A DNA stretch of 64,000 nt from Bacillota bacterium (lineage in GTDB: Bacteria; Bacillota_I; Bacilli_A; RFN20; CAG-826). How positions within the stretch are numbered: the stretch's first letter is position 1; every line of letters begins with the position of its first letter. The stretch is taken from NCBI GenBank assembly GCA_030537155.1, contig JAUNOH010000002.1, forward strand, positions 59,816-123,815. Reading direction: 5' to 3'. The notes beneath the pieces were generated by a model that was not told the origin of the DNA, made no database searches, and saw nothing but the letters and a program-made list of their open reading frames with translations. Below are positions 28,962 through 47,098 of the stretch, one piece after another. A program made the position numbers and the translations under genes.

Positions 28962-29053
28962 AAAATTGCAAGAACTTGCAAAAATGTAAAACAAACACAT
29001 CCTATTTACTAAACCGTGATATAATTTTATAAAATTGCAAGAACTTGCAAAAA
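28962..29053 (+). repeat. two perfect 24-nt direct repeats AAAATTGCAAGAACTTGCAAAAAT (28962-28985 and 29030-29053)
   Basis: Read directly. Each copy holds two self-complementary TTGCAA hexamers. The second copy abuts the start of the DUF4143 ATPase gene. An extended -10 TGATATAAT lies at 29018-29026. Confidence 0.8.
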
Positions 29054-29059
29054 TATTCA

Positions 29060-30370
29060 ATGGAATTAAATATGCGTTACGATCGAAAAAATTACGTAGA
29101 CAAGTTGCTGCGAAAAAGAAACAACGGGCTCGTCAAGGTTGTGACCGGCATAAGAAGGGTTGGCAAGAGCTTTATCCTTAACGAGCTGTTGAGAGAGAAG
29201 TTAATAGAAGGCGGATTTAATAAGGAAAATATCATTTCCTTCTCTTTTGATTCAGCCTTTGATTTGGAGAAAATAGGAGAGGATTTGCTCGACATCAAGG
29301 AAAAAAACAGAAAAGTGGACCCCCATAAATTCCTCCCCTTTATCCGGGAATTGACCAAAGGGGAAGGGCCTTATGTTTTGCTGCTTGATGAAATTCAGGA
29401 ATTAGGCAATTTCGAAGCCGTCTTAAATGGGTATCTTCGCCAAAATAACGTCGATGTCTATGTGACTGGGAGTAACGCACGCACACTTAGTAGGGATGTC
29501 TCGACAGAATTTGGCAAAAGGGGCGACGAAATCAAGGTTTACCCCTTGTCGTTCTCCGAATTTTACGAACATTCTGATCTTGGTTCACAAAAAGCTTTAA
29601 ATGATTATCTGCGCTTTGGCGGCATGCCGACCGTCGCCAATTGCGGTTCCGACGAGGAAAAGGCGGAGGAACTCAATGGTTTATTAGAAAAGATTTATCT
29701 ACGCGACGTTATCGTCAGAAACGGAGTGAATAACGAAGCCGGGCTTTCCGCGCTCCTTGATATCATGGCCTCCAACGTTGGGTCTCCGACCAATCCCAAA
29801 AAGATAGCCGATTCGTTTCAAAGCAAGGAAAAATTATCTTTAAGTCAGGCGACAATATCCAAATATCTGGAATATTTTGAAAACGCCTTTCTTTTAGAAC
29901 AATGCGCCCGTTACGACATCAAGGGGAAGGGCTACATCGAAACCCCAAAGAAATATTATTTTGAGGACCTCGGTTTAAGGAATTCGCGCCTGCGGTTTAG
30001 GCAATTCGACGAGGGTCATCTATTCGAGAATATGGTGTATCTGGAGTTATCCAGGAGAGGCTATGCGATTGACGTCGGGACCCTATTCCACAGCGAGCCA
30101 AATCACAACGGAAACTATGTGAGAAAGGAAATCGAAGTGGACTTTGTCGCCAGAAAAGGAGACAAAGAGATTTATATCCAATGCTGCAACACACTTCCGG
30201 AAGATGAGAAGGAGAAGGTGGAGAAAAGAGGTCTCATAAAGATTGGAAACTCCTTCAAGAAGATACTGCTGGTCAACAAGGAAATACCCCATTTCTACGA
30301 CCCGGACGGCATATTGACCTTAGGTGTTTTCGATTTTCTGCTTAGCGAAGATTCTATCGAAAGATACTAA
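29060..30370 (+). CDS. AAA_14 / DUF4143-family ATPase (COG1373-like), paralog 1
   Basis: Walker A GIRRVGKS. Walker B LLLDEIQ. C-terminal DUF4143-like region (restriction-endonuclease-like fold). Start is uncertain (TTG 29045, ATG 29060 or ATG 29072). Confidence 0.8.
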   Translation: MELNMRYDRKNYVDKLLRKRNNGLVKVVTGIRRVGKSFILNELLREKLIEGGFNKENIISFSFDSAFDLEKIGEDLLDIKEKNRKVDPHKFLPFIRELTKGEGPYVLLLDEIQELGNFEAVLNGYLRQNNVDVYVTGSNARTLSRDVSTEFGKRGDEIKVYPLSFSEFYEHSDLGSQKALNDYLRFGGMPTVANCGSDEEKAEELNGLLEKIYLRDVIVRNGVNNEAGLSALLDIMASNVGSPTNPKKIADSFQSKEKLSLSQATISKYLEYFENAFLLEQCARYDIKGKGYIETPKKYYFEDLGLRNSRLRFRQFDEGHLFENMVYLELSRRGYAIDVGTLFHSEPNHNGNYVRKEIEVDFVARKGDKEIYIQCCNTLPEDEKEKVEKRGLIKIGNSFKKILLVNKEIPHFYDPDGILTLGVFDFLLSEDSIERY

Positions 30371-33035: not shown

Positions 33036-33438
33036 GGGGCCGTATTGGTTTTGACGGGGATGTCATTCGGTAGCGGCTGCAGTAGAGCGGCGATCTATAA
33101 CGCCAAAACAAAATAACTGACAACAGTTACATGTATCGCAACACCAACCGTGTTGCGTATGCTCGCGCCTAATTTAATTTAGACACCTAATGGGTCCTGC
33201 ATAGAGTCAGGGCGGCACGCTCCCTGCGGTTTCTTCGTCTCATGCGCAGCAAGAGTGTCATAACAAGACGATAAGCTGGTTCGCTCGGCTAGGCGGATCG
33301 GACGAAAATCCTATAGTCTCGCCTGGGGGTATTCTGGTTGTGTCCTCGACCTCAGGTTAAATCCCGACGCAGCCTAAACTGTAGAGGCTGTTATTGGATC
33401 ATCTTCGGACCGGAGTTCGACTCTCCGCGGTTCCACCA
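33036..33438 (+). ncRNA. ssrA: transfer-messenger RNA (tmRNA, SsrA), about 403 nt
   Basis: 5' GGGGCCGUAUUGGUUUUGACGGGG. 3' GGACCGGAGUUCGACUCUCCGCGGUUCCACCA (T-arm plus acceptor plus encoded CCA). The acceptor stem has a G3:U pair. Tag ORF runs GAC (33119) to TAA (33170-33172), encoding (A)DNSYMYRNTNRVAYARA. Confidence 0.88.
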
Positions 33439-33477: not shown

Positions 33478-33702
33478 ATACTTTTTGGGCTTTTTGGAAA
33501 GTTTATTTGAACGTTGGGTCACGATTTTGTTTGATGCCCAAGCTACCGGGTTTGATTCGATTTCCCTTAGGACCTACATATTTTCTCTCTTTCGCCTCTG
33601 TTGATCGATTGTCGCATGCCTTCCTATTTGGGGAAGCGCGGCTATTTATATGGTTTGGCGTGTCTACTTTTAGGTTACCGGTGCAACCTTTGGGCAAAAA
33701 CC

Positions 33703-33782
33703 TGTAAAAAGGTGCATTCAATTAGGAAAAAATAGTGTAAAAAGGTGCAAGTAACTATATAATATCTATGTAAAAAGGTGAA
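33703..33782 (+). repeat. three direct repeats TGTAAAAAGGTG(C/A)A phased exactly 33 bp apart (33703, 33736, 33769)
   Basis: Read directly. The third copy overlaps the start region of DUF4143 ATPase paralog 2. Confidence 0.75.
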
Positions 33783-33795
33783 AGCAAATCTTGAT

Positions 33796-35160
33796 ATGGA
33801 TAGAAAATATTTGGTGGATTTAATCAGGTGGAATCAGGACGAAAATAGAAAGCCTCTTTTGGTTTTTGGCGCTAGGCAAGTTGGGAAAAGTTACCTGATA
33901 GAGGAACTCTTTGCCAAAAAATATTATAAAAATGCCTATCTTAGGATCGATTGTTCTGATGATGGAGATTTCGTCGACTATGTCTATAAGAACGACAGTC
34001 TAGACAAAGTTTTGGATTATTTATATATCCGCTACGACTTTGTCCCCGATAAGAACCACCTACTCTTCGTCGACGAAGCGCAGGAGTGCTTGCCGATTAT
34101 TAAGATGATGAAGCATTTTTGTGAGCGAAGGAGAGAGATTCCTTTGATTGTCTCCGGTTCCTTGGTTCGAATCAAAATCAGCCGGGGTTCCAAGAAGGCG
34201 GGGCGAGAGGACAAGAAGTTTCTTTTCCCGGTTGGAAAAATAAATCAGCTCACGGTTTACCCACTAACCTTCGACGAGTTCCTATATAACTACAAGAAAA
34301 ACACCTACGATTATCTAACGAATTCATTCGCAGAAAAGAGTTTTATCAACGACGAGTTGCACCAGCAACTAATCGACATTTTCAATGACTATCTATTTGT
34401 CGGCGGCATGCCTGAGGCCGTTGACGTCTTCATCAAGAACAAAGAAAACAAAGTCTTTGCTTATGAGAAAGCCTACAAGACACTTTCCGACATCTATTCC
34501 AACTACCTGAGTGACATGGAACTCTATCAGGCTTCCAGCGAGTCTATTCTTAAGAGCAGGCTTATTTTTCGGAATATTTATTCTCAACTCAATAAGGAGA
34601 ACAAAAACTTTAAATGTTCCATGTTGAACGAGAAGTACAAGACTAGGGACGTCGTGGCCCCAATAGAATGGCTGGTAACCGCCAATGTCGTGAATAAATC
34701 CTTGCTTTTAAAAGAGCACGTTTCTACCCCGTTAGTCGAGGAAGACGGCTCCTTATATCGCCTATACCTTTCTGATATGGGTCTATTCACCTATCAGAGC
34801 GGATTGAAGGCGAAGGGTTTCGCCCTCGATAAGCAAAACAGCCTGTCCGGAATTTATTACGAGAATTATGTTTCCACGGAATTGGCCGCCAGAAATTTTC
34901 CATTGTTCTATTGGAAGGGAAAAAGAAGCAGCGAATTCGAATTCCTGCTGGATATAGATGGGAGGGTCGTTCCCATCGACTCCAAGAAGAAAAAGGGATC
35001 GCTCAATTCTATAAACGAATTTAGGATGCATAACAAAAGAGGGCCGGTGATCAAAGTTTCCATGAATCATTATGGTTACGACGAGGAAAACGAAATACTG
35101 ACGTTGCCATATTACTACTTCGCCTTCTATCTAAATTCCGTCATGAAAGGAATTTTATAA
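33796..35160 (+). CDS. AAA_14 / DUF4143-family ATPase, paralog 2
   Basis: Walker A GARQVGKS. Walker B LLFVDEAQ. DUF4143-like C-terminus. The ORF-track start is a GTG at 33778. ATG 33796 (MDRKYLV) is preferred. Confidence 0.8.
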   Translation: MDRKYLVDLIRWNQDENRKPLLVFGARQVGKSYLIEELFAKKYYKNAYLRIDCSDDGDFVDYVYKNDSLDKVLDYLYIRYDFVPDKNHLLFVDEAQECLPIIKMMKHFCERRREIPLIVSGSLVRIKISRGSKKAGREDKKFLFPVGKINQLTVYPLTFDEFLYNYKKNTYDYLTNSFAEKSFINDELHQQLIDIFNDYLFVGGMPEAVDVFIKNKENKVFAYEKAYKTLSDIYSNYLSDMELYQASSESILKSRLIFRNIYSQLNKENKNFKCSMLNEKYKTRDVVAPIEWLVTANVVNKSLLLKEHVSTPLVEEDGSLYRLYLSDMGLFTYQSGLKAKGFALDKQNSLSGIYYENYVSTELAARNFPLFYWKGKRSSEFEFLLDIDGRVVPIDSKKKKGSLNSINEFRMHNKRGPVIKVSMNHYGYDEENEILTLPYYYFAFYLNSVMKGIL

Positions 35161-35502: not shown

Positions 35503-35562
35503 AAAATGTCCGTCCATCAACATTTTGGAAGGGAAAAATGTCCATCAATCAACATTTTGGAA
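35503..35562 (+). repeat. two tandem 28-nt palindromic elements, CCAAAATG-n12-CATTTTGG
   Basis: AAAATGTCCGTCCATCAACATTTTGGAA (35503-35530) and AAAATGTCCATCAATCAACATTTTGGAA (35535-35562). Each has an 8-bp inverted repeat. Confidence 0.7.
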
Positions 35563-35644: not shown

Positions 35645-36199
35645 CTAAGCAGACAACCCCTTCAGCTTTTTAAACGAATCATACCCAAACACCGATATAA
35701 ATAAGGCGTCAGCCACCTGTGAGGCATCACTTTGGCAGCCATCTTTTAGCCAGGCCAAGGAGACATTAAACAAAGCTCCGCAGTAGGTGTAGGGGAGATA
35801 CTTGTTATCGACTACCGACTTTGATTGGAAGTCGGCCGCGAAATTCTGGTTGAGGTAATCGAGGTATATATACTCCAAATGGCATTCGATGATCTTGTCA
35901 AATAGGTCTTTGTTCTTCTTTAACCCCTCTAAGACATGGATGATCACCCGGTAATACTCTTCGGGGGAGCTGGGGGAGTGGGGGTTATCCATCAGGAACT
36001 TCGCGCTTTCCTTGTTGAAGTAATAGATGATGACCGACTCCTTGGAGGCGAAGTTCCGATAGAAGGTAACCCTACCGACCCCGGCTTTCCTTGTTATCTC
36101 GGTCACGCTTATCTGCTGGAAGTCCTTTTCCTTCATCAGCTTGAAGAGGGCTTCGACTATGTAGTGTTTGCTATATTCGCTGGTGTCGTGGCTTGGCAT
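35645..36199 (-). CDS. TetR/AcrR family transcriptional regulator (185 aa)
   Basis: HTH ISVTEITRKAGVGRVTFYRNFASKE. Start placed at ATG 36197-36199, which has an AGGAGGAG RBS. The ORF-track N-terminal extension is not supported. Confidence 0.8.
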   Translation of the reverse strand: MPSHDTSEYSKHYIVEALFKLMKEKDFQQISVTEITRKAGVGRVTFYRNFASKESVIIYYFNKESAKFLMDNPHSPSSPEEYYRVIIHVLEGLKKNKDLFDKIIECHLEYIYLDYLNQNFAADFQSKSVVDNKYLPYTYCGALFNVSLAWLKDGCQSDASQVADALFISVFGYDSFKKLKGLSA

Positions 36200-36360
36200 G
36201 GAACAAATCTCCTCCTTTGTTTCAAATGGGGAAACAGATTTCCCCTTTTGTTTCGTTTTGGCTCGGATCCGTTGACCAAAATCCGATTTAAAAACATGAT
36301 ACAGGCGTTTCAGGCCGAAACAAGTGTTCCATGAGCCAAATAGGCAGGAAGGAGTAATAA

Positions 36361-36899
36361 ATGGACAATCACAACTTCGCGACATACGAATACATGTCGA
36401 AATCCGTCAAATCGAACGAGCAGTCCTCGTGCATCGACTGTTATGAGGCCTTCGGCTGGGAGGCCACTTCCACCGATCAGGCCCCGATCAACCAGGTGAC
36501 CATCGCCTTAAAAGGGACCGCAAGATCCCCCACAAGACCGAGTTAAACCGTCTGGAGAGGAAAGCCGAGAGTATCAAGGACGGCATCGACCAGCTGGAGA
36601 AGAGCAAGAGCAGGGGAGCCAATATCTTCGCCTATACCTTCGGGGTCTTTGCGGCCTTAGTCCTAGGCGGGGGCATGTGCCTATGCATGTATATGGGCAC
36701 GGTTAACATCGCCTTCATGGTCGTTGGGATCGTCATCGGCTTAGTGGGTATTGGGCTGGCCGGATTGAACTATCCGATCTACCAGGGCCTTAAAAGCCGT
36801 AAGAGCAAAGAGGTCAGCCCCATCATCGAGGAGAACCAGGAAAAGCTATCCACAATCCTGGAGCAAGCCCATAACCTCATCGTGAATCCCAATATCTAA
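36361..36899 (+). pseudogene. small membrane protein gene interrupted by a frameshift in an A4 tract (two-TM hairpin protein, divergent from TetR)
   Basis: ORF 36361-36546 (frame 1) and ORF 36675-36899 (frame 3) join into one reading frame if TTAAAAGGG (36508-36516) holds one more A. The restored junction reads ...IALKRDRKIPHKTELNRLERKAE... Confidence 0.6.
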
Positions 36900-36922
36900 T
36901 TATTAAGTGTACGCGTACGTGA

Positions 36923-36949
36923 GCCTGTCGAAAGACGGGCTTTTCTTTT
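36923..36949 (+). terminator. rho-independent terminator
   Basis: GCCTGTC-gaaa-GACGGGC hairpin followed by TTTTCTTTT. Confidence 0.55.
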
Positions 36950-37415: not shown

Positions 37416-38198
37416 ATGCATAAAAAATATTTGGCTTTCGGGCTACCAGTCTTAGGAGCCCTCGCAGTTGTAGGAAGCGGCTTTTCCGCTTGGGCGTTCG
37501 GAGGAAACACCACTTATGATGATGCATCTATCAATGTTGCCGTTACTGAAGTGGCCCAGTATGGTCAGGTAACGCCATTTAGCGATACCGTTTATTTGTT
37601 GCTTGACCAAGGTGGCCAGAGCAACGCCAGTGGCCAGGATTATGGTATTTCCTTTGTTAAGGTTGCAACGTCTTCTACTGATGGCGAAACCATAACTTTC
37701 AATAAAGATGAACCTGATACTTTTGAGATGGTTACATCGTTAGGTGCTACTTATTCTATTGATCAGGATTTAGTTGATACTCTAATTAATTCGGGCTTTA
37801 CCAAGTACAACCTTTCCTCAGAGATTTCTTTGACTAGCCCCTTGACTAATTATGTCGAGTTTAAGGCTCTGACAACCGCACAGAATTCAGATTCTACTTA
37901 TACATATTCTTTGGATAACAACGTTTTTAAAATGGTTGAGACGGATTCTCAAAGTCTTCCAACTTCCGGTGGAATTTCAAACGATGCTTTCCCGTCAATT
38001 GACGTCTCCAGCACCGAATCCACCTCTTCTGGAAGTAAGATTTATAGCGCCAACAAATTGCTTCAATACGCGACCGTTCCCCAGGAAGAATCCAGTACTG
38101 TTGTTGGTAAACCGACCGATTCTGCCGCCCTTTCCTCAATGTCTACTGCCCTGACATCGGCAACCATCACCGTCACCTTCACCGTCACCTGTGCCTGA
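37416..38198 (+). CDS. secreted Thr/Ser-rich protein with TasA/camelysin-type (SipW-cognate) signal peptide, 260 aa
   Basis: N-terminus MHKKYLAFGLPVLGALAVVGSGFSAWAFGGN. Compare B. subtilis TasA ...ALVGGGTWAAFND and camelysin ...IGGGTFAFF. AAAGGGGGGA RBS upstream. Confidence 0.7.
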   Translation: MHKKYLAFGLPVLGALAVVGSGFSAWAFGGNTTYDDASINVAVTEVAQYGQVTPFSDTVYLLLDQGGQSNASGQDYGISFVKVATSSTDGETITFNKDEPDTFEMVTSLGATYSIDQDLVDTLINSGFTKYNLSSEISLTSPLTNYVEFKALTTAQNSDSTYTYSLDNNVFKMVETDSQSLPTSGGISNDAFPSIDVSSTESTSSGSKIYSANKLLQYATVPQEESSTVVGKPTDSAALSSMSTALTSATITVTFTVTCA

Positions 38199-38298
38199 TT
38201 TATATGGGGCCTCCTTCATCCCCTGGGGGAGGCCCCGCCTCTACACCTTATTTATCAAGCCTATTCGTGACCATTAGTCTAATGGGGCTGAGATGAAT

Positions 38299-38336
38299 GT
38301 GGCTTGAGGGCCTTTGTGGCCGTAAGCCACGTTTTT
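38299..38336 (+). terminator. intra-operon terminator/attenuator hairpin between cluster genes 1 and 2
   Basis: GTGGCTTgaGGGCC-tttgt-GGCCgtAAGCCAC followed by GTTTTT. A second GC-rich 9-bp hairpin without a U-tail lies at 38206-38236. Confidence 0.55.
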
Positions 38337-38345
38337 AATGACACT

Positions 38346-38996
38346 ATGAAATACCTGAGACTGATAACCGCCTTGACAGTCCCGGCTCTCTCTGCCGGAT
38401 CTTTAATCGCGGTCGGGTATGCGTCTTGGGTGTTCTTGGATGTGCAAACAGCTACCGCCTCTGGCGAAGTTGTGGTGGCCTCGGAGTCGGTCTTAAACGG
38501 AGCTCTTACCTTAAGCATGGACCAATACTATTCGGAATTCAGGATCGTTTTCTCTCAGGGCGGTGCAGAACATCGCTATGAGGCGAACTATGGCATCGAC
38601 TTTGTACCTGAAATAGACTTTACCTTCACCTTTACCACCTCAACCCTCAATACTGCCGAATTCGACGGAACTAAGTTTTATATCGACTGTTCTTTCACCA
38701 CTGAGTCGACGGTATTTAACAATTACGCTTACCTCGTTACCTCAGATAGCAAAGTTGAGCTATTTGGCATCAGTGATGTAACCGCCACATCAACCAACCC
38801 AACAATTGTCGAAGAAACCGATGGCATTACTTATACCTACACCGGTTCCTATACTCCCGCTTTTGCCTATGTGAGCGAGAACAAGCCGACTACCGAATCG
38901 GCTTATAACACCATGATCAACGAGCTTAACAACGATGATGTTGCTAAGACCATCACGTTGACGGTCGCTCTGGAAAAGGAGACGACTACCTCATGA
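38346..38996 (+). CDS. secreted protein with SipW-cognate-type signal peptide, 216 aa
   Basis: MKYLRLITALTVPALSAGSLIAVGYASWVFLD. Same hydrophobic helix plus G-[FY]-[AS]-x-W-x-F motif as gene 1. The ORF-track start is a TTG at 38304. ATG 38346 is preferred. Confidence 0.65.
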   Translation: MKYLRLITALTVPALSAGSLIAVGYASWVFLDVQTATASGEVVVASESVLNGALTLSMDQYYSEFRIVFSQGGAEHRYEANYGIDFVPEIDFTFTFTTSTLNTAEFDGTKFYIDCSFTTESTVFNNYAYLVTSDSKVELFGISDVTATSTNPTIVEETDGITYTYTGSYTPAFAYVSENKPTTESAYNTMINELNNDDVAKTITLTVALEKETTTS

Positions 38997-41830
38997 ACTG
39001 GCTCGGATTTAAAAAACATCTAACCGGCATACTAGTCGCCTTAGGAGCGATTGTTCTTTCGGTTGGTACCGGCTTCTCCACATTCTATTTCTATGAAGCC
39101 GCCACGGCTTCCTCTAGCGTTAATGATGTCCCGGACGACATCAGGGAAAATCAGACCTTTGGCACGAACGACGACTCCATTACCGACACGACTAAGTACT
39201 ATGACGTCTACTTCATGCCCCAGATGGTGGATTTGACTGATTACGAAGACACAGTAGACGAGACGACGAGCAGCGTTGTCACCACTGCCACTGACGCTTG
39301 GACTGGCATCAAATACACAAATCTTGAAGTGACCACCTCCAGTGGCAAAACCAAAACGGTTAGGAATTATGAGACATTGCCAGATAGAGATACACTATTT
39401 TACAGAGATGTAGATTTAGATGACAAAAGCATCGCCAAAAGTTTTACTAGCGACTCTGTCACATATACAAGCCTCAATTCCACAATAAACTACGACCCGT
39501 CCGTTGATTATACCGACGATAATGACACCACTACGCAGGGAATGTGGGTGCCCGCTTACGGATATATGGATCCGGACACGCGCAAATATTGGGGAGAGGA
39601 GGTTCTTTCCACCACTTTTGAAGGAAATGCTGCTACCAGCTCCACCGGCGCTAATGGGGGAACGGCTACTTGGTCTTCATACAAAGGCTCTGTCTACCCC
39701 CTAACCTATCGCAAATACTCCAATGTAAGGAAAATCACAAACGACATGCTTGCGCAAGTCGGAACCCCTAAGGCTTGCATGTATGACTGCATGACCACTA
39801 TGTATAAGCTTGCCTTTTGTTCTTGGTCGGTTTCTTACATTAGTGGTTCTTATAAATACTATTCGAACAAAACAGATGATTACACTGACACAGCCACGAA
39901 TTGGCCAGGCAACTATCCATTTGAAGTTTCTGGGAGCTTCCCTACTAATTTTGAAATCGCCTATTTTGGCACCAGCTTGGATTTATATGAAGAAAAAGCC
40001 GTTTACATCAACGGGACCCCGACCCTGTTCTTCTATCCTGTTTATAGTACCGGCAAAGGCTATTATGAACTTAATAAGGACGGGTATGGAAAAGACGCCA
40101 TCAGGACCCATTATTATACCGGCGGGAATCAAGTGGTAGAATCGCTTCCCAAAGGTTATAAGAATCCTACCTTTTTGCCATATGACACAACGAATACCAA
40201 CAGCATTTCTTCTATAAAAAGCGGGGACTCAACACCATTGGCAAATGTCGAATGTTACCGCTATTCAAACATCAATTTTACCAGCAAGGCCGAGGCCTAC
40301 ACCGATGAAAACGCGATAAGTTTCAGCACGGACCCCGGTGTCAATGGGTCCCGCTCATGGCTAGGCACTTGGCATCCCATTTACTACGAGGGCTCCCCTT
40401 TTATCATCAATCGAAATACCGGGGTTTTTAACATTTATGTTTTTGTTCTCGTCTCCACATCTTCATCGGAAACCGCCTTTACGTCTGATGAAACGGAATT
40501 AATCATCAATTGCATGATTAATTCCGATGTGGAACCATATGTCCAGCCCTATGAATCTTATGATTGTGAGACGATAACCGTTGATAGCAACTATCGTGAT
40601 TATTTCATCGTCTTTGAAAAAGTTTACGAGCCCAGACTCATTGCAGGCCCCACCAAGACCTTTGATTATGAAAGTACTGGTTCCATTAATACACCGGTGA
40701 TTCGCGAAGAGCCTACCGGCATTGAAAAAGATTCTTTTTCCTGCAGCGACATCACCTTCGACTTCGAGAACGATTATGTGACGTACGATTATACCTCCCC
40801 CAACACCGGTTACACCTATAGGTTTACGGATTATTTCTTCTCGTTCCAGTTAGCAAAAAACGATGCATACAATTCATATATCGTAAGCCCGGTTAATGAG
40901 AGTTCGACGTTCTCTTATTCCATACCAGAGATTCAATATGTGAATGCGTCCGCCGCAGAACAATACAAGTCGAAGTCCATACTCATCTCGATATTAGAGG
41001 AATACAACGTTCTTTATAAGTATGAACATACGTCGACCAGCTATTTAGCGTATGAGGCATACGTTGAGAGCTTCGCTTTGGATTTCCAGCGACTTGGCGT
41101 TTATATTAGCGGAAAATTTACGTGTTTAGCCGATCTGGAAAAGGTCACGACTGTTAATGGTGTGACCTCTGCTTCCCTTGGTTACACAAACTATCTTGAG
41201 TATGCCGTAACCACCATGCAAAACCTTATCAGGCCTTTGGAGATCGGGGTTTATAATCTGGCCGTCCACATCAACTACGACACCACCTCTCACCGACCAT
41301 CGACAATTGACGTTTGGGCACACAAGAAACACAACTATTTCGTTAACGTCAACGGCACCGACAAAGGAACCGAAGCGACTCAGGACAGTACCAGCAGTAG
41401 CAGTGGCGACGTCAGCTATTACGCTAATGTCACCGATTATGATTACCAATATAGCAGCTACTATTACCTGCTTTCGTATATCATGCCGACCGACGAGTAC
41501 AACTATAAGGTGACTACAACCGTTGATGGCACGGAAACCACAACGACGTCGACAACAACTTTCTTACAAATTCTTTCGAATTATCATCAGCAGGGCAAAT
41601 GCCTTCAGGATCGTGTAACCGGGAAATACATAACCTATCAGGATTACCAAAATTATTCTGACGCCTTGGCCGAATACTCGAGTAGTATCAGCGCCGGCTT
41701 AACCGCCACGGCGCCACAGGCAAGTGCCTATAACCTCTTCCAAATCACAGGAAACCACATCCTACAAGCCGTTGCCGAACCCTCTTGGGTAACCTCATAT
41801 TCATCATCTTCCGCGGAGGCCTTACTATGA
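38993..41830 (+). CDS. large (945 aa) Thr/Ser/Tyr-rich secreted protein with SipW-cognate-type signal peptide
   Basis: MNWLGFKKHLTGILVALGAIVLSVGTGFSTFYFYEA... No recognisable domains. 4-nt overlap with gene 2. ATGA overlap with the downstream sipW-like gene. Confidence 0.7.
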   Translation: MNWLGFKKHLTGILVALGAIVLSVGTGFSTFYFYEAATASSSVNDVPDDIRENQTFGTNDDSITDTTKYYDVYFMPQMVDLTDYEDTVDETTSSVVTTATDAWTGIKYTNLEVTTSSGKTKTVRNYETLPDRDTLFYRDVDLDDKSIAKSFTSDSVTYTSLNSTINYDPSVDYTDDNDTTTQGMWVPAYGYMDPDTRKYWGEEVLSTTFEGNAATSSTGANGGTATWSSYKGSVYPLTYRKYSNVRKITNDMLAQVGTPKACMYDCMTTMYKLAFCSWSVSYISGSYKYYSNKTDDYTDTATNWPGNYPFEVSGSFPTNFEIAYFGTSLDLYEEKAVYINGTPTLFFYPVYSTGKGYYELNKDGYGKDAIRTHYYTGGNQVVESLPKGYKNPTFLPYDTTNTNSISSIKSGDSTPLANVECYRYSNINFTSKAEAYTDENAISFSTDPGVNGSRSWLGTWHPIYYEGSPFIINRNTGVFNIYVFVLVSTSSSETAFTSDETELIINCMINSDVEPYVQPYESYDCETITVDSNYRDYFIVFEKVYEPRLIAGPTKTFDYESTGSINTPVIREEPTGIEKDSFSCSDITFDFENDYVTYDYTSPNTGYTYRFTDYFFSFQLAKNDAYNSYIVSPVNESSTFSYSIPEIQYVNASAAEQYKSKSILISILEEYNVLYKYEHTSTSYLAYEAYVESFALDFQRLGVYISGKFTCLADLEKVTTVNGVTSASLGYTNYLEYAVTTMQNLIRPLEIGVYNLAVHINYDTTSHRPSTIDVWAHKKHNYFVNVNGTDKGTEATQDSTSSSSGDVSYYANVTDYDYQYSSYYYLLSYIMPTDEYNYKVTTTVDGTETTTTSTTTFLQILSNYHQQGKCLQDRVTGKYITYQDYQNYSDALAEYSSSISAGLTATAPQASAYNLFQITGNHILQAVAEPSWVTSYSSSSAEALL

Positions 41831-44478
41831 GTACCGTTTTCCCTGTCTTTAACATCCTCGCCAGCGCCGACCAGATCGAGGGCATCTCCTTTGCCGTCTC
41901 CATCACCGTCATCGCCTTATTGACGATCGCCTATGGCGTCCTTTTCTTCATCTACTACAAGCTATACGCCAAATGCGTCAACGGCTCATTAGAGGACGAC
42001 TACCTAAAGAGAGAGGTCGTCTATGAGCATAAACGCTACTTCAAGAAGACGGAGCCCGTGGTCAACGACCACGACCTTCAGGAAAGCGACAAGCGCGAAG
42101 GAACCATAACCTTAGGTGAGCATGTCGAGCAGCATAAGCGGACCAGGAATGGCTTGAAGTTCCTCTCCAACTCCATCTTGGTCGTCACCTACCTCATCTT
42201 CGTCGCCCTTATGGCCAGCGCCATCTATGTCCGCCGGAGCGGCGATATCTTCACCATCGGCGGTCAGGGCTATCTAATCATCGAGACCTCCTCCATGGAG
42301 ACCGTCAGCACCTCCAACACGGCGGTCGTCGAGGCCGGATTGGATGATCAGATCGAGGCCTTATCCTTAATCAATATTGTCTCCCTTGAAGATGAATCCG
42401 ATGTCTCCTTGTTCGACATCGTCGCCTTCCATGATTCGGATGGCAACATCATCGTCCACCGCGTCGTCTCCATCACCCAGGATAACGACACTGGGGAGAC
42501 CCTCTATACCTGCAGGGGCGACGCCAACACCGGCTCGGCCCTCTATGAGGTCGGATTGACCTTTGATGACCTATTGGGCAAATATGGCGGATTCCAAAAT
42601 TTCGGCTTAGGCGTCTTCATCTACTACATGAAGAGCCCCATCGGCTTGATCACCCTGGCCTTCGCCTTGGTTTTGGTTGGATTCTATGACCTGATGGATA
42701 TCCTCTTAGGTCGACGTATCGCCCAAAGGAAGATGGTCATGGTCGGCATCATCGATAATGAAATCGATAAAGCCATCTCCGATGACGATGAGATCCACTA
42801 TTTGGATTGGATCAGCAACAAGAAACGCAAGAAGTCGTTCAAGCCCAAAGAAGAGGAGAAGAAGGTTGAAGAACCCGTAGCCGAGGAACCCGCGCCGGTC
42901 ATCGAAGAGCCTGTGCCCGCCCCGGAGGTAGTCGTGGTGGCCGAAGCAGCCGAGAAGAAGGAATATCCTCGCACCAGCTTCCTCGACAAGATGGCCAACA
43001 TCGACGACAACCTCAAGCAGAAGTACAACGAACTGAAGGCCCACTTGCTCTCCTGGGATTTGAAGAGCCGCATCTCAAAATCCGGGGACACCTTCAGGAA
43101 GTCTTATAAGATGTATGCCCGCATCACGGTCTCGGGCAAATCGCTCAAGCTCTATCTGGCCCTCGACCCGAAGAGCTATGAGGGAACTACCTATCCGGTC
43201 CAGGATGTCTCCGCCAAGAAGGCCTTTGCCGAGATACCCTGCATGATCAAGGTCAAATCCGACCTCTCCCTGAATAGGGCTAAGAAGCTAGTTGACGATA
43301 TGTTCATCGACTCCGGCATCACGCCCTGGGAGGTTATTGAGCACGACCACTGGTCCGATCTATTCGCCAACCCCATCGAGGATGAAGAGCCCGAAGCGGT
43401 GGAGGAAGATGTCGAAGAGGTGGTCGAGGAGCCCGTGGTGGCCCCCGAACCCGTCGTCGTACCGGTCCCCGAAGAGGCTGCCCCCGTCGTCTATCAGAGG
43501 ACGAGCTTCCTCGATAAGATGGCCGGCATCGATGATGACCTCAAAGCCAAATACAACGAGCTTAAGGACTACCTGCTATCCTGGGATCTGAAGAGCCGCA
43601 TATCTAAATCCGGCGATAGCTTCCGTAAGTCCTATAAGATGTACGCGAGGATCGCCGTATCCGGAAAGGCATTGAAGCTATACCTGGCTTTGGATCCCGC
43701 CGCATATGCCGATAGCCCGATCCCGGTGAAGGACGTCTCCTCCAAGAAGGTGTTCGCCGAGATCCCGGCCATGATCAAGGTCAAGTCGGATCTCTCCCTC
43801 AACAGGGCGAAGAAACTGATCGACGATATGTTCGTCGATTCGGGCATCACCCAGTGGGAGATAACCCCCGAAGATTATTATTCGGCCCTCTTTGCCGGAG
43901 ATGAGCCCATAGAGGACGATGAAGAGGTCGTGGACGAGGAATCTCCCGCCACGGAGGCTCCCGCGCCCGTAGAGCCCGAAATCGTGCCTGAGGAGCCTGA
44001 AAGCGCCCCCGAGGAGGAAGCCCCTGCCGAAGCGGCCGCCGAAGGATATAAGAGGTTATCCTTCTCCGATAGGCTCGATAACGCCTCCGAAAGCCAGATT
44101 GAGCAGTATAACGCCATCAAGCAGGCCTTCTACGAATATGGCCTAAAGGGCCGTTACTCGGCCTCGGGCGAATCCTTCAGGAAGCATGGAAAACGCTATG
44201 GCAAGCTATGCTTCACCCAGAAGGGTTTGAGGTTATACCTCTCGCTGGATCCCGCTTCCTTCGCGGATAGCCCGATCCCGGTGAAGGATTGCTCGTCCAA
44301 TAAGTCGGTCTCCGATGTGCCTTGCTCCATCAAGATCAGGAGCCCGCTCTCGTTAAAGAGGGCCCTCCAGATGATCGAGCAGGCCCTAGCCGAGGATGAT
44401 CTCCCAAAGAAAGAGGTTAAGCCCGTCGACCACTACGCCGAAATACTGGCTACCCTCGAGGAGAAATCCAAGTCTTAG
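41827..44478 (+). CDS. sipW: SipW-type (ER/archaeal-type Ser/His) signal peptidase I fused to a ~550-aa C-terminal repeat-containing tail (883 aa)
   Basis: LKFLSNSILVVTYLIFVALMASAIYV...GYLIIETSSMETV aligns with B. subtilis SipW LKRLLTWSVNIILIILLAFLSVYNA...LKAVLSGSMEPEF. IVHRVVSI aligns with VTHRIVDI. CRGDANTG aligns with TKGDNNAA. KSPIGLITLAFALVLV aligns with SQPIGTAVLLIVPGV. Catalytic Ser codon at 42292-42294. His codon at 42457-42459. The C-terminal tail has three tandem repeats starting at 42964, 43492 and 44047. Confidence 0.8.
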   Translation: MSTVFPVFNILASADQIEGISFAVSITVIALLTIAYGVLFFIYYKLYAKCVNGSLEDDYLKREVVYEHKRYFKKTEPVVNDHDLQESDKREGTITLGEHVEQHKRTRNGLKFLSNSILVVTYLIFVALMASAIYVRRSGDIFTIGGQGYLIIETSSMETVSTSNTAVVEAGLDDQIEALSLINIVSLEDESDVSLFDIVAFHDSDGNIIVHRVVSITQDNDTGETLYTCRGDANTGSALYEVGLTFDDLLGKYGGFQNFGLGVFIYYMKSPIGLITLAFALVLVGFYDLMDILLGRRIAQRKMVMVGIIDNEIDKAISDDDEIHYLDWISNKKRKKSFKPKEEEKKVEEPVAEEPAPVIEEPVPAPEVVVVAEAAEKKEYPRTSFLDKMANIDDNLKQKYNELKAHLLSWDLKSRISKSGDTFRKSYKMYARITVSGKSLKLYLALDPKSYEGTTYPVQDVSAKKAFAEIPCMIKVKSDLSLNRAKKLVDDMFIDSGITPWEVIEHDHWSDLFANPIEDEEPEAVEEDVEEVVEEPVVAPEPVVVPVPEEAAPVVYQRTSFLDKMAGIDDDLKAKYNELKDYLLSWDLKSRISKSGDSFRKSYKMYARIAVSGKALKLYLALDPAAYADSPIPVKDVSSKKVFAEIPAMIKVKSDLSLNRAKKLIDDMFVDSGITQWEITPEDYYSALFAGDEPIEDDEEVVDEESPATEAPAPVEPEIVPEEPESAPEEEAPAEAAAEGYKRLSFSDRLDNASESQIEQYNAIKQAFYEYGLKGRYSASGESFRKHGKRYGKLCFTQKGLRLYLSLDPASFADSPIPVKDCSSNKSVSDVPCSIKIRSPLSLKRALQMIEQALAEDDLPKKEVKPVDHYAEILATLEEKSKS

Positions 44479-44578: not shown

Positions 44579-47098
44579 ATGGCTGGGGTACGCGGGATTT
44601 TATTCAAGAAGCTGTTTCGCGGTTTTAAAGGCAGTGGAAGCAATTCCTCTCCCTCTTCTTCATCGGCACGATGGCGATGTCGCTCTATATTGGCCTATAT
44701 GCCAACGCCCTTTGCTTAGAAAGCCGGGTGGAGTCGGTCTATACCGACGGGAATCTGGCCGACGTCAATATCGCCGTCTCCTCATATAACGAGGGGGATT
44801 TAACCCACGTTGAGTCTTTGGCGGAACCCTTTGGCTTTAACGATAGTGAATCCCGTTACGTACTAGGCGCCTCGATATCCGCGAATTCATGTAACCTCAT
44901 CATCGCCCCCTCTTTATCGTCCATCTCGATTAACAAACCCATTAATATTGTCGACCGCTCCTCGACGGACACCGAATTCTTTTTGACTTCCTCCCTCTAC
45001 CGCACCACCGAAAATTATGCCCGCGAGGTCGTCGTCTCGGCCTCGGAGATAACTAACATCCTTTATTACTCCGCCCAGAATAACGGGTATGAGGGTTCCA
45101 GGAGTGAGCTACTCACCGAGCTGGATTCCCTTTGCACAGCAACCGAGAATCCCTTTAGGGAGAATCAGCTTTCCCTTTCCTACCGCTATACCGGCTACAC
45201 CGATTCGCCGGAAGGCATCGTCAACGACACCTTCTCCATCCGCATGCTCTACATGGGCAAGAAGACCTTCCAAAGAGGGGTCGCTAGCTTCATAAGCTCC
45301 AACTTCTCAGACGCCACGAGGCTGAATGCCCTATTTGGCTTAACGACCGACGATATAGCCTCTCCTACGAGTTTCCCGCGCGATAACCAATATCTCCTGG
45401 ATATGGGCTCCCACGATGGCTTAGAGGGACTGGAGGAGGAGATAATCGCCTATTTCCAAAATGGCTCCACCGGATATGTCAGTTCCATCACCGACCGGAG
45501 CACCTATACCTTCGTCATCGCCACCTCCACCGAGATCGGGCAGGCCTATTCGCTTTGCTACGTCTTCCCGCCTTTCTTTTATCTAGTCGGCTTCTTGGTG
45601 TGCGTCACCACCAATAACCAGTTATTGACTAGGGAGAGGAAAAACATCGGGATCATGAAATCCCTCTCCGTCCCCAAAAAGTGGATATACCTCCATTATG
45701 GCCTATATACCGGACTGCCTATTTTCCTCTCCTGCGTGGCGGCCATGGGCTTTGGGCCCTGGATATTCCCAATCGCCGTCAACGTCAAATACCGGACGAT
45801 CTATGATCTCCCCTCGGTCTTTTATACCTTCCCGATCCTCCAGGCCCTATTGGGGACGGCAATCTTCCTTTTCGCCTCCTTGTTGGTCTCCTCGCTTTTG
45901 CTTAGGAAACAGATGAAGGAGAACCCCGTCGAATTGCTCCGCCCCAAAAGCCCGCCCTACACCAAAAGGCATGAGAGGAGCCTTAAGAGGCCTTCCCCCA
46001 TCAAACTAAACATCGTCATGGCCGTCCGGAACATGCGGGTCAACTTGGCTAAATCGATGATGGTCGTGGTGGGGGTATTTGGCTGCACCTCCCTTATGTG
46101 CGCGGCTTTCGGGATGCTCGATTCCATCGACTATGGGGTCAACCTCGAACTGTCCGAATTCTTCGATTACGACCTCAAGGCCAATTACACCGCCCGCGGG
46201 GATTATCAGGAGGAGCTATCCGCCATCTCCTGGATCAGCGAGTATGAGCAGTTCTCCCAAAACGGGACCGTGGTTACGGCGGTGAATGAAGGTGGCTTGA
46301 GCGGGAGCTCCTACGCCGGGGGATATCTTCGTCTTTGGGGATAGCAAACCCATCCATACGATTGAATTGCCCGAAACCGGCGGGGGCGTCACCATCAGCC
46401 AGAAGATAGCCACCCAGATATCGGTTGAGGTGGGGGATACGGTCTCATTCTCCTTTTTGGGCAACGAATACCAGGCCACCGTCGGGCGGATTGAGCACAC
46501 CTTCATAACCTTCGGCGTCTTCACCAGTTTCGAAGAACTCGGCATCGAGCCGACCTATAACATATGCGGCATTAGAATGAATGAGGGCATGACCCTAACT
46601 CAGGGCTATAACCTCATCAAAAAGCAATCCTTCGTCCAAGATGCCTATTGGGTTCAGCGGAACGCCGTAAACCAGATTTCCTCCGTTTATGGTGGGGTGG
46701 AGATACTATCCTGGATCATGGAGATATTCGCGGTCTTCATGGCTTTGGCGGTTTTATATAACCTGGCTTCCATGAATTACCGCGATAGGGTGCGTGACAT
46801 GATCATCATGAAGACGATGGGCTTTGACAAAATCAACGTCAGTGCCAGCCTCATCATGGAGACGCTTTTCCTCACCCTTTTGGGTGTGGCGGGTGGACTG
46901 GGCTTTGGCTATCCCCTGCTATATTGGATATTCCAGGTCAACAGCATGGCCATCGTCGATTTCTTCTACGTCATCGACCCGATCAGCTATTTCGCATCTT
47001 TCCTCATCAGCTTCGGGGTCGGCATATTGGTGAGCGTCATCCTCTGCCTATTGACCGATCGCATAAAGCTATCGGAGTCACTCAAGGAAATAGAGTAG
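44579..47098 (+). pseudogene. FtsX-domain ABC transporter permease (MacB/YtrF-like, two FtsX modules) disrupted by two frameshifts
   Basis: N-terminal MAGVRGILFKKLFRGFKGS (frame A, from ATG 44579) shifts near 44625 into ...WKQFLSLFFIGTMAMSLY... (ORF 44671-46344). FtsX motifs ERKNIGIMKSLSV and DRVRDMIIMKTMGFD. A second shift in a G5 tract at 46318-46322 joins ...SSYAG to DIFVFGDSKPIHTIELPETGGGVTIS (ORF 46367-47098). Confidence 0.65.

Follow-up and report, generated by a model that had tools for sequence, protein, structure and literature searches.

A four-gene cassette and its counterparts in other loci

This study concerns a cassette of four genes, g1 to g4, in a 64-kb stretch of a Bacillota bacterium genome (contig JAUNOH010000002.1; the whole stretch is referred to as the window). 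The last gene appears to encode a signal peptidase of the SipW type, and the products of the three genes before it share an N-terminal element. A first-pass annotation, made from the DNA letters, had described a four-gene cluster with 4-nt overlaps between g2 and g3 and between g3 and g4. Inspection of the open reading frames (ORFs) and of the ATGA junctions confirmed this description. All four ORFs run in one direction:

37416-38198, + strand: g1, 260 amino acids (aa); the cassette's first gene, encoding a putative small substrate of class A ('LDQGG' type), candidate major subunit
38346-38996, + strand: g2, 216 aa from its ATG; putative small substrate of class B ('[IV]F[ST][EQ]G' type)
38993-41830, + strand: g3, 945 aa; putative large substrate, candidate distal adhesin
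41827-44478, + strand: g4, 883 aa; S26B-type signal peptidase with three transmembrane (TM) segments and a predicted cytoplasmic repeat tail

The 4-nt ATGA overlaps lie at the g2/g3 junction (TCATGAAC) and the g3/g4 junction (CTATGAGT), and a GGAGG ribosome-binding site precedes g4. Judging by its overlap, g2 is translationally coupled to g3. The longest ORF for g2 begins upstream of the ATG, at a TTG codon (38304). Identical proteins are found at NCBI as four consecutive entries (MDO5330043-46) from a 'Bacillota bacterium' metagenome-assembled genome (MAG), all named 'hypothetical protein'. Because these calls have the same lengths as ours, they confirm the start sites of g1 to g4.

The cassette was compared with loci reached through three peptidase homologues and with 18 from a scan of GTDB species genomes, which together gave 20 distinct loci besides the window. 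All 20 come from MAGs or metagenomes (gut MAGs). Each locus has, on the flanks of its peptidase gene, one to four genes encoding proteins of 190-260 aa and, where the contig extends far enough, a single gene encoding a protein of 730-945 aa. All of the flanking proteins, small and large, start with the motif described below, preceded by a K/R n-region and a hydrophobic core. Since the GC content of the loci spans 24-54%, this arrangement has been maintained over long divergence. Loci with a named organism belong to Ca. Enterosoma, uncultured Bacilli and an uncultured Firmicutes bacterium with a 1.06-Mb chromosome. The flanks that were read differ from locus to locus (secE-nusG, for example, in L001).

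A MacB-like transporter lies upstream of the cassette in three loci (L013, L015 and L018), and other loci lack it. A link between the cassette and an FtsX-type permease in the window was considered and dropped, as the MacB-like genes of these three loci are not detectably similar to the permease ORFs of the window. It should also be noted that five bins are labelled Bacteroides uniformis (L013), Sodaliphilus (L018), Prevotellaceae (L020), Prevotella sp. (L021) and Oscillospiraceae (L012). Their loci have a GC content of 32-42% and a gene content like that of the Bacilli-type loci. These bins are probably mislabelled or contaminated, and a true occurrence in Bacteroidota is unlikely.

A shared N-terminal signal and a SipW-type peptidase

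The products of g1 (GSGFSAWAF), g2 (AVGYASWVF) and g3 (GTGFSTFYF) each carry, behind a K/R-rich n-region and a hydrophobic core, a version of the consensus [IV]-V-G-x-G↓F-[SA]-x-W-x-F, in which the arrow marks the predicted cleavage. The first-pass annotation had noticed a shared motif after the hydrophobic helix, and its conservation in 45 small homologues shows that it did not arise by chance. The predicted signal peptides are:

37416-37481, + strand: g1 signal peptide, aa 1-22, predicted cleavage VVGSG↓FSAWAF
38346-38417, + strand: g2 signal peptide, aa 1-24, predicted cleavage LIAVG↓YASWVF
38993-39073, + strand: g3 signal peptide, aa 1-27, predicted cleavage SVGTG↓FSTFYF

We tabulated the motif in these 45 small proteins, which come from the 20 loci and the window. 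On the non-prime side, P5 is I, V or L, P4 is V (31/45), P3 is G (40/45), P2 is S, A, T or V, and P1 is G (43/45). On the prime side, P1' is F in 43 of the 45, P2' is S, A or G, P4' is W in 42 and P6' is F in 44. The large proteins follow a related pattern, with S, G or T at P3 and G or A at P1 in all 14, then L/F at P1', F/W at P4' and F at P6'. The bond after the motif G/A is the sole position that meets the rule of small residues at -3 and -1 in every member, small and large; a cut placed as in TasA would leave many of them with Y, F, M or L at P1. Cleavage most probably occurs between the motif G (P1) and F (P1').

Profiles of the small family (38 sequences) and the large family (15 sequences) were aligned to each other with hhalign. 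Only the first 34 columns align (probability 92.5%, E=4.9e-7). The two families are otherwise unrelated and have only this N-terminal element in common, and it is therefore likely to be a sorting signal that is read by a common machine. Within the 64-kb window the motif occurs near a protein N-terminus only in g1, g2 and g3, and a SipW-type peptidase gene adjoins motif-bearing genes in all 21 distinct loci, the window counted.

The signals had been assigned to the TasA/camelysin class. This assignment did not hold. TIGR04088, the model for SipW-cognate signal peptides (cut-off 19 bits), matched none of five N-termini (g1 to g3 and two homologues) at E<=10, while the control, the N-terminus of TasA, scored 42.2 bits. 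In the reverse direction, a hidden Markov model (HMM) built from 59 cassette signals gave TasA 7.6 bits, no more than background and no more than ordinary lipoprotein signals receive, and the alignment was confined to the generic n/h region. We therefore reject membership of the TasA/camelysin signal class on both tests.

The g4 protein contains the following parts ahead of its tail:

41896-42174, + strand: extra TM1 (aa 24-42) and K/R-rich cytoplasmic loop (aa 43-116); family-specific, conserved in four homologues
42175-42696, + strand: TM2, extracytoplasmic catalytic domain and TM3 (aa 117-290)
42292-42294, 42457-42459 and 42520-42522, + strand: predicted catalytic residues Ser156, His211 and Asp232, respectively; columns invariant

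As curated models of the S26B group we used the NCBIfam SipW equivalog (NF046067) and TIGR02228, together with Pfam S24/S26. Residues 113-287 match the SipW model (E=8e-10, 38.6 bits, curated cut-off 190) and the NCBIfam model for archaeal-type signal peptidase I (E=2.8e-9, 37.0 bits, cut-off 51.85). In an alignment of g4 with three homologues, S156-M157-E158, I208-I209-V210-H211-R212 and G231-D232-A233-N234 are invariant. The profile of this alignment matches human SEC11C (E=1.1e-4) and SEC11A over the ivHRV and GDnN boxes, with SGSMEP of SEC11C aligned in a weak first segment. The Ser box, SxSME, comes straight after the membrane anchor. A His general base, in the HR[IV]V box, replaces the Lys of bacterial S26A enzymes, and the Asp box GDxN is present. 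The earlier identification of g4 as a Ser/His peptidase of the SipW type is thus upheld by the NCBIfam match, the invariant boxes and the SEC11 match. An S26/SipW HMM search had also been suggested as a check, and its outcome was mixed: the NCBIfam models matched, but below their curated cut-offs, and no Pfam model did. By its residues, g4 is a divergent and catalytically intact member of the ER/archaeal (endoplasmic reticulum/archaeal) S26B branch that includes SipW. SEC11 and the archaeal signal peptidase I (MEROPS S26B) have SxSME, HR[IV]V and GDxN boxes that align with those of g4. They differ in being general-purpose enzymes, with SEC11 working in a multi-subunit complex, whereas g4 has three TM segments and is operon-linked to a few putative substrates.

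Hydropathy places the TM segments at aa 24-42, 117-135 and 272-290, the first of which is the extra N-terminal segment that had been reported. Charge counts under the positive-inside rule put the acidic N-terminus outside, loop 43-116 inside and the part after TM3, which starts with RRIAQRK, in the cytoplasm. TM2 and TM3 enclose the catalytic domain, which must face outward, so the N-terminus should be outside and the loop and tail inside.

Word-indexed searches returned only 3, 9 and 2 homologues, and it was an exhaustive profile search of 1.84 billion representatives that revealed a large peptidase family (233 clusters at E<1e-30 and 614 at E<1e-10). Among the best 150 representatives, the majority align from profile positions 1-16 and therefore share the extra TM1. 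By these profile matches, g4 belongs to a sizeable subfamily that had previously gone unnoticed.

The first-pass annotation had taken the three upstream proteins as likely cognate substrates of g4. The signal that they share, and the same arrangement in 20 other loci, support this, and we consider it very probable, from the sequences, that g4 matures the co-encoded proteins. One other role for the enzyme has to be weighed. The N-terminal helix might be a retained anchor with the F..W.F residues as a belt at the membrane interface, and g4 might shed the proteins in a regulated way or, like SipA/LepA, assist assembly without cleaving, its tail serving as a regulatory input. Signal-peptidase-like pilus assembly factors are known (PMC4049620). 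Aromatic residues straight after a TM helix are typical of interface belts, and the large cytoplasmic tail and conserved loop of the peptidase suggest coupling to the cell interior. However, the small residues at P3 and P1 are a requirement of a cleavage site, and the tail cannot be essential to the mechanism, as most family members are tail-less. Furthermore, the catalytic Ser, His and Asp are invariant in the g4 family, whereas SipA/LepA-type factors have lost their catalytic residues. We judge a retained anchor to be improbable and proceed with cleavage by g4.

Substrate families and the proposed surface structure

The 945-aa product of g3 had been described as rich in Thr, Ser and Tyr and free of known domains, and this was borne out: it contains 12.5% T, 10.9% S and 10.1% Y and has no Pfam match. 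More broadly, no Pfam domain was detected in g1 to g3, nor in any of 38 small or 15 large homologues, at E<=0.01. A profile of the small family retrieved nothing relevant from the PDB, with no TasA, CalY or AbpA chain at E<=10, and the substrate families matched nothing in PHROGs or PADLOC. The earlier suggestion to search with Peptidase_M73 (PF12389, the M73/TasA family) gave no match among the 38 small homologues. The proposal that the system is of an undescribed type thus agrees with the lack of matches to the substrate families in Pfam, PDB, PHROGs and PADLOC, and by these searches the families are undescribed.

An AlphaFold2 (AF2) model of g1, built from an 11-sequence alignment, is a beta-sandwich (pLDDT, the predicted local distance difference test, 70.5; pTM, the predicted template modelling score, 0.68). 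Its first ~45 residues (1-46), which comprise the signal peptide and ~25 residues of the mature N-terminus, are of low confidence. The best structural neighbours, all weak, are Gram-positive pilin and macroglobulin-type domains. TasA is not among the structural matches of this generic sandwich, and the comparison with TasA and camelysin folds that had been suggested accordingly gave no support for kinship. We reject a relationship of the substrates to TasA and camelysin on the signal and on sequence, and the predicted fold of g1 gives no sign of one.

None of 62 substrates has an LPXTG-like motif in its last 60 residues or a C-terminal TM segment; two of the 62 have only a mildly hydrophobic final beta-strand. 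With the signals removed, two main positional classes can be distinguished among the small proteins. Class A ('LDQGG', including g1) is the cassette's first gene, upstream of the peptidase gene, in most loci including the window, and g1 groups with the upstream 'LDQGG' paralogues of 10 other loci. Whatever the position of the peptidase gene, class B ('[IV]F[ST][EQ]G', including g2) directly precedes the large gene in 16 of 17 loci.

The principle of a dedicated SipW-type peptidase with its own substrates is already known. The tapA-sipW-tasA operon of B. subtilis provides the precedent for a peptidase encoded with its substrates (PMC9245690, PMC9674648), and an aromatic P2' residue blocks LepB, leaving TasA in need of SipW (PMC10269814). 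Like that operon, the cassette places an ER/archaeal-type (Ser/His) peptidase among its own putative secreted substrates, which have a special signal in common with aromatic residues around the cut, and its small products of ~200-260 aa are beta-rich with a major and an accessory member. Unlike that operon, the cassette has substrates that are not homologues of TasA, TapA or camelysin, a signal (GxG↓F[SA]xWxF) that fails TIGR04088 and a third substrate of ~900 aa. Compared with B. subtilis SipW, the cassette peptidase has an additional N-terminal TM segment and cytoplasmic loop and an insertion of ~15 residues between the Ser and His boxes, and some members of its family have a long cytoplasmic tail.

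The presence of three substrates, one of them large, had been considered unusual. It is not, as the sipW-bsaA-bsaB-bsaC operon of C. perfringens has the same make-up: a SipW-type peptidase, two small matrix-type proteins and a large (70-kDa) third protein that also bears the signal (PMC11580942). BsaA and BsaB of strain 13, like the cassette substrates, show no apparent LPXTG. However, BsaA and BsaB are remotely homologous to TasA and a VWA domain is present in BsaC (PMC11580942), whereas the 15 large and 38 small cassette proteins have no known domain, and there is no evidence of isopeptide-forming residues in them. In both the B. subtilis and the C. perfringens operons, the N-terminus exposed by cleavage is a donor strand (PMC9245690, PMC9674648, PMC11580942).

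The cassette substrates differ from sortase-assembled Gram-positive pilins in having no LPXTG and hydrophobic tail (0/62). SipA is of the S26A type, has no catalytic residues and works with sortase and LPXTG pilins. The S. pyogenes SipA/LepA factor resembles g4 as a signal-peptidase homologue inside a surface-polymer cluster with major, minor and tip components (PMC4049620), but the catalytic residues of g4 are invariant and its substrates lack LPXTG.

We propose the following course of events. The g1, g2 and g3 proteins would be made as Sec-type pre-proteins, whose signals run from a K/R n-region through 12-15 hydrophobic core residues to the c-region [IV]-V-G-x-G. The predicted outward-facing Ser156/His211/Asp232 domain of g4 would then cut the signal peptides, most probably between G and F, so that F-[SA]-x-W-x-F, an aromatic hexapeptide, would form the start of each mature protein. 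As with TasA and SipW, the aromatic residues past the cut would make these proteins poor substrates for a housekeeping peptidase, and this would be why a dedicated enzyme is co-encoded. Outside the cell the mature proteins may join into a surface structure in which class A (g1) would be the abundant building block, class B (g2) an adaptor made stoichiometrically with the large protein, and the large protein (g3) a part placed distally or acting in adhesion. Such a division of labour is favored by the fixed gene positions of the two small classes and by the structured spacer behind g1. By analogy, a donor or docking strand is best sought in the shared aromatic N-terminus and the flexible stretch behind it. 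The tail of g4, which by its predicted topology is cytoplasmic, would be an optional add-on apart from the secreted structure.

On balance, we lean towards the cassette being a self-contained export and processing unit for a surface fibre or adhesin system. Fibre formation is plausible by analogy with the characterized operons. Several results weigh against this assignment. No kinship of the substrates to TasA, camelysin or AbpA was detected in sequence or fold, so the analogy with fibres comes from operon logic only. The peptidase falls below the curated NCBIfam cut-offs (38.6 against 190 and 37 against 51.85) and matches no Pfam S24/S26 peptidase model at E<=1. Cleavage may also be off by one residue from the position proposed here, or may occur elsewhere.

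The cassette might instead be a route by which proteins are processed and secreted without polymerising, maturing a non-filamentous surface or secreted complex such as an adhesin of class B plus the large protein with a soluble class A. The lack of homology to any known fibre subunit would agree with this, as would the self-contained look of the g1 sandwich, and the coupling of class B to the large gene suits a heterodimer as well as a tip complex. However, loci have 1-4 class-A paralogues, no substrate has an anchor, and the mature N-terminus is conserved in all substrates, suggesting a shared interaction after cleavage. In addition, the dedicated SipW-type peptidases of the characterized operons cited here serve polymerising proteins (PMC9674648, PMC11580942). 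We regard a non-polymerising complex as unlikely and continue to favor a fibre or adhesin system.

A more specific form of the fibre proposal is tentative. It would be a filament type, unrecognized before, of uncultured small-genome gut Bacilli, independent of sortase, type IV pili and chaperone-usher assembly and not related to TasA in sequence. Beta-sandwich subunits would be freed by a three-TM S26B peptidase and joined via their aromatic N-termini, with a tip adhesin of ~900 aa attached via a coupled adaptor, and in some lineages the cytoplasmic domain of the peptidase would link assembly to the cell interior. This is a possibility that we find somewhat doubtful as a whole.

Neither the signal motif, the peptidase architecture, the substrate families nor the tail domain discussed below is described in Pfam, NCBIfam, the PDB or the literature searched. 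Several features that current annotation misses can be defined from this locus. The sorting signal (GxG↓F[SA]xWxF) is new, as are two families of secreted proteins, a family of large surface proteins and a widespread cytoplasmic domain; to these is added a divergent branch of SipW/Sec11-type peptidases with three TM segments. An HMM for the motif could locate the exported substrates of the cassette peptidase genome-wide. How uncultured gut lineages attach to a host or partner is essentially unknown, and a conserved surface-structure cassette would give a concrete handle on this question.

The repeat tail of g4 and the chromosomal surroundings

The tail of g4 spans ~550 aa and consists of three copies of a ~145-aa unit, split by acidic Pro/Glu/Val linkers:

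42952-43398, + strand: tail repeat 1 (aa 376-524); apparently undescribed alpha+beta domain with an acidic proline-rich linker before it
43492-43926, + strand: tail repeat 2 (aa 556-700); recent tandem duplicate of repeat 1
44035-44475, + strand: tail repeat 3 (aa 737-883); older copy, 34% identical to repeat 1

Repeats 1 and 2 are 77% identical at the amino acid level and 75-80% identical at the nucleotide level, with a spacing of 528 nt. The first-pass annotation had listed the large repeat tail among the unusual features of the cluster. Its three units are real, but the tail is cytoplasmic by predicted topology, and hence would lie outside any extracellular matrix. It is also an optional module, carried by 27 of 151 peptidase homologues.

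A metagenome scan for the tail domain, which measures ~130 aa, found 140 further loci (digester, rumen and gut). In the 80 loci examined (L023-L102), the domain occurs once, at the extreme C-terminus of proteins of 400-1020 aa that have N-terminal multi-TM regions and long, charged, low-complexity linkers rich in E, K and P. The N-terminal parts of these proteins are unrelated and none of the 80 matched a Pfam family. In g4 the domain is triplicated. From its sequence contexts, it appears to be a cytoplasmic module of membrane proteins that has not been described before, and its fold is of the YdhG/YjbR/MotA-CTD-like class (CTD, C-terminal domain). A different fusion context is seen in one 183-aa protein from an ENA metagenome (P0161), in which the domain follows an N-terminal segment of ~40 aa (MKEYKFKINGNDYTVAINSVEGN). 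This segment may resemble the N-terminus of biotin-carboxyl-carrier-type decarboxylase subunits.

All three repeats are matched by the PDC-S18 models of PADLOC (E=7.6e-24), and it could be asked whether the cassette, or at least g4, serves an anti-phage or mobile-element function. The lower GC content over 34-42 kb of the window and a transfer-messenger RNA (tmRNA) gene 4 kb upstream would also be in keeping with this. However, the PDC-S18 match is limited to the C-terminal domain (profile positions 197-323 of 365), which is all that the PADLOC candidates have in common with g4, the remainder of which is a peptidase. The same domain is found at the end of many membrane proteins that are otherwise unrelated, the tail is missing from most peptidases of the family, and neither PHROGs matches nor an island boundary were found. 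PDC systems are themselves untested candidates, and our literature search found no paper mentioning the name PDC-S18. We consider a defense or mobile-element role very remote, and the processing of co-encoded proteins remains the preferred role of the cassette.

The tmRNA gene lies at 33036-33438 (Rfam, 118 bits). The tag peptide predicted by ARAGORN is DNSYMYRNTNRVAYARA, with an ending other than the usual ALAA. A genomic island at this gene was considered and rejected, as there is no duplicated tmRNA 3' end, bracketing direct repeat or other island boundary. The rest of the 64-kb window is ordinary chromosome (pth, mfd, ftsH, dus, lysS, gdpP, dnaB, the tmRNA gene, phosphotransferase system (PTS) genes and adhE), with a GC dip over 34-42 kb.

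Within the cassette, g1 and g2 are separated by 150 nt:

38205-38339, + strand: highly structured g1-g2 spacer; 13-bp GC hairpin after the g1 stop, second hairpin and U5 run before g2

The minimum free energy (MFE) of the 150-nt spacer is -63.6 kcal/mol against a shuffle mean of -44.9 (z = -4.5), and the spacer may act as a partial terminator or as an mRNA stabilizer. Upstream of g1 is an AT-rich spacer of ~470 bp, which starts after a terminator-like hairpin at 36921-36942. A scan of the DNA for promoters and terminators yielded no excess over shuffled sequence; terminator-like sites were seen in the g1-g2 spacer, but their number was no higher than in the shuffles.

Downstream of the cassette, at 44671-47098, an FtsX-type permease is split into two consecutive ORFs (557 and 243 aa) with one FtsX domain each. 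No ABC (ATP-binding cassette) ATPase domain was found in either ORF. The permease may be a frameshifted or degenerate MacB-like transporter.

On the upstream side, paralogous genes for ATPases with AAA_14 and DUF4143 domains (29045-30370 and 33778-35160) flank the tmRNA gene. Three tandem 33-nt units that share TGTAAAAAGGTG (33689-33787) lie directly upstream of the second ATPase gene and run into its start (33778-35160). A coding-like stretch at 36400-36899, with a TAA at 36897-36899 followed by the good terminator hairpin at 36921-36942, is absent from the list of ORFs of >=80 aa and may represent a small membrane protein gene that has been disrupted. Between the second ATPase gene and a divergent TetR-family gene (35645-36385, minus strand) are two 28-nt copies of AAAATGTCC(G/A)TC(C/A)ATCAACATTTTGGAA, 32 nt apart (35503-35562), which may be an operator.

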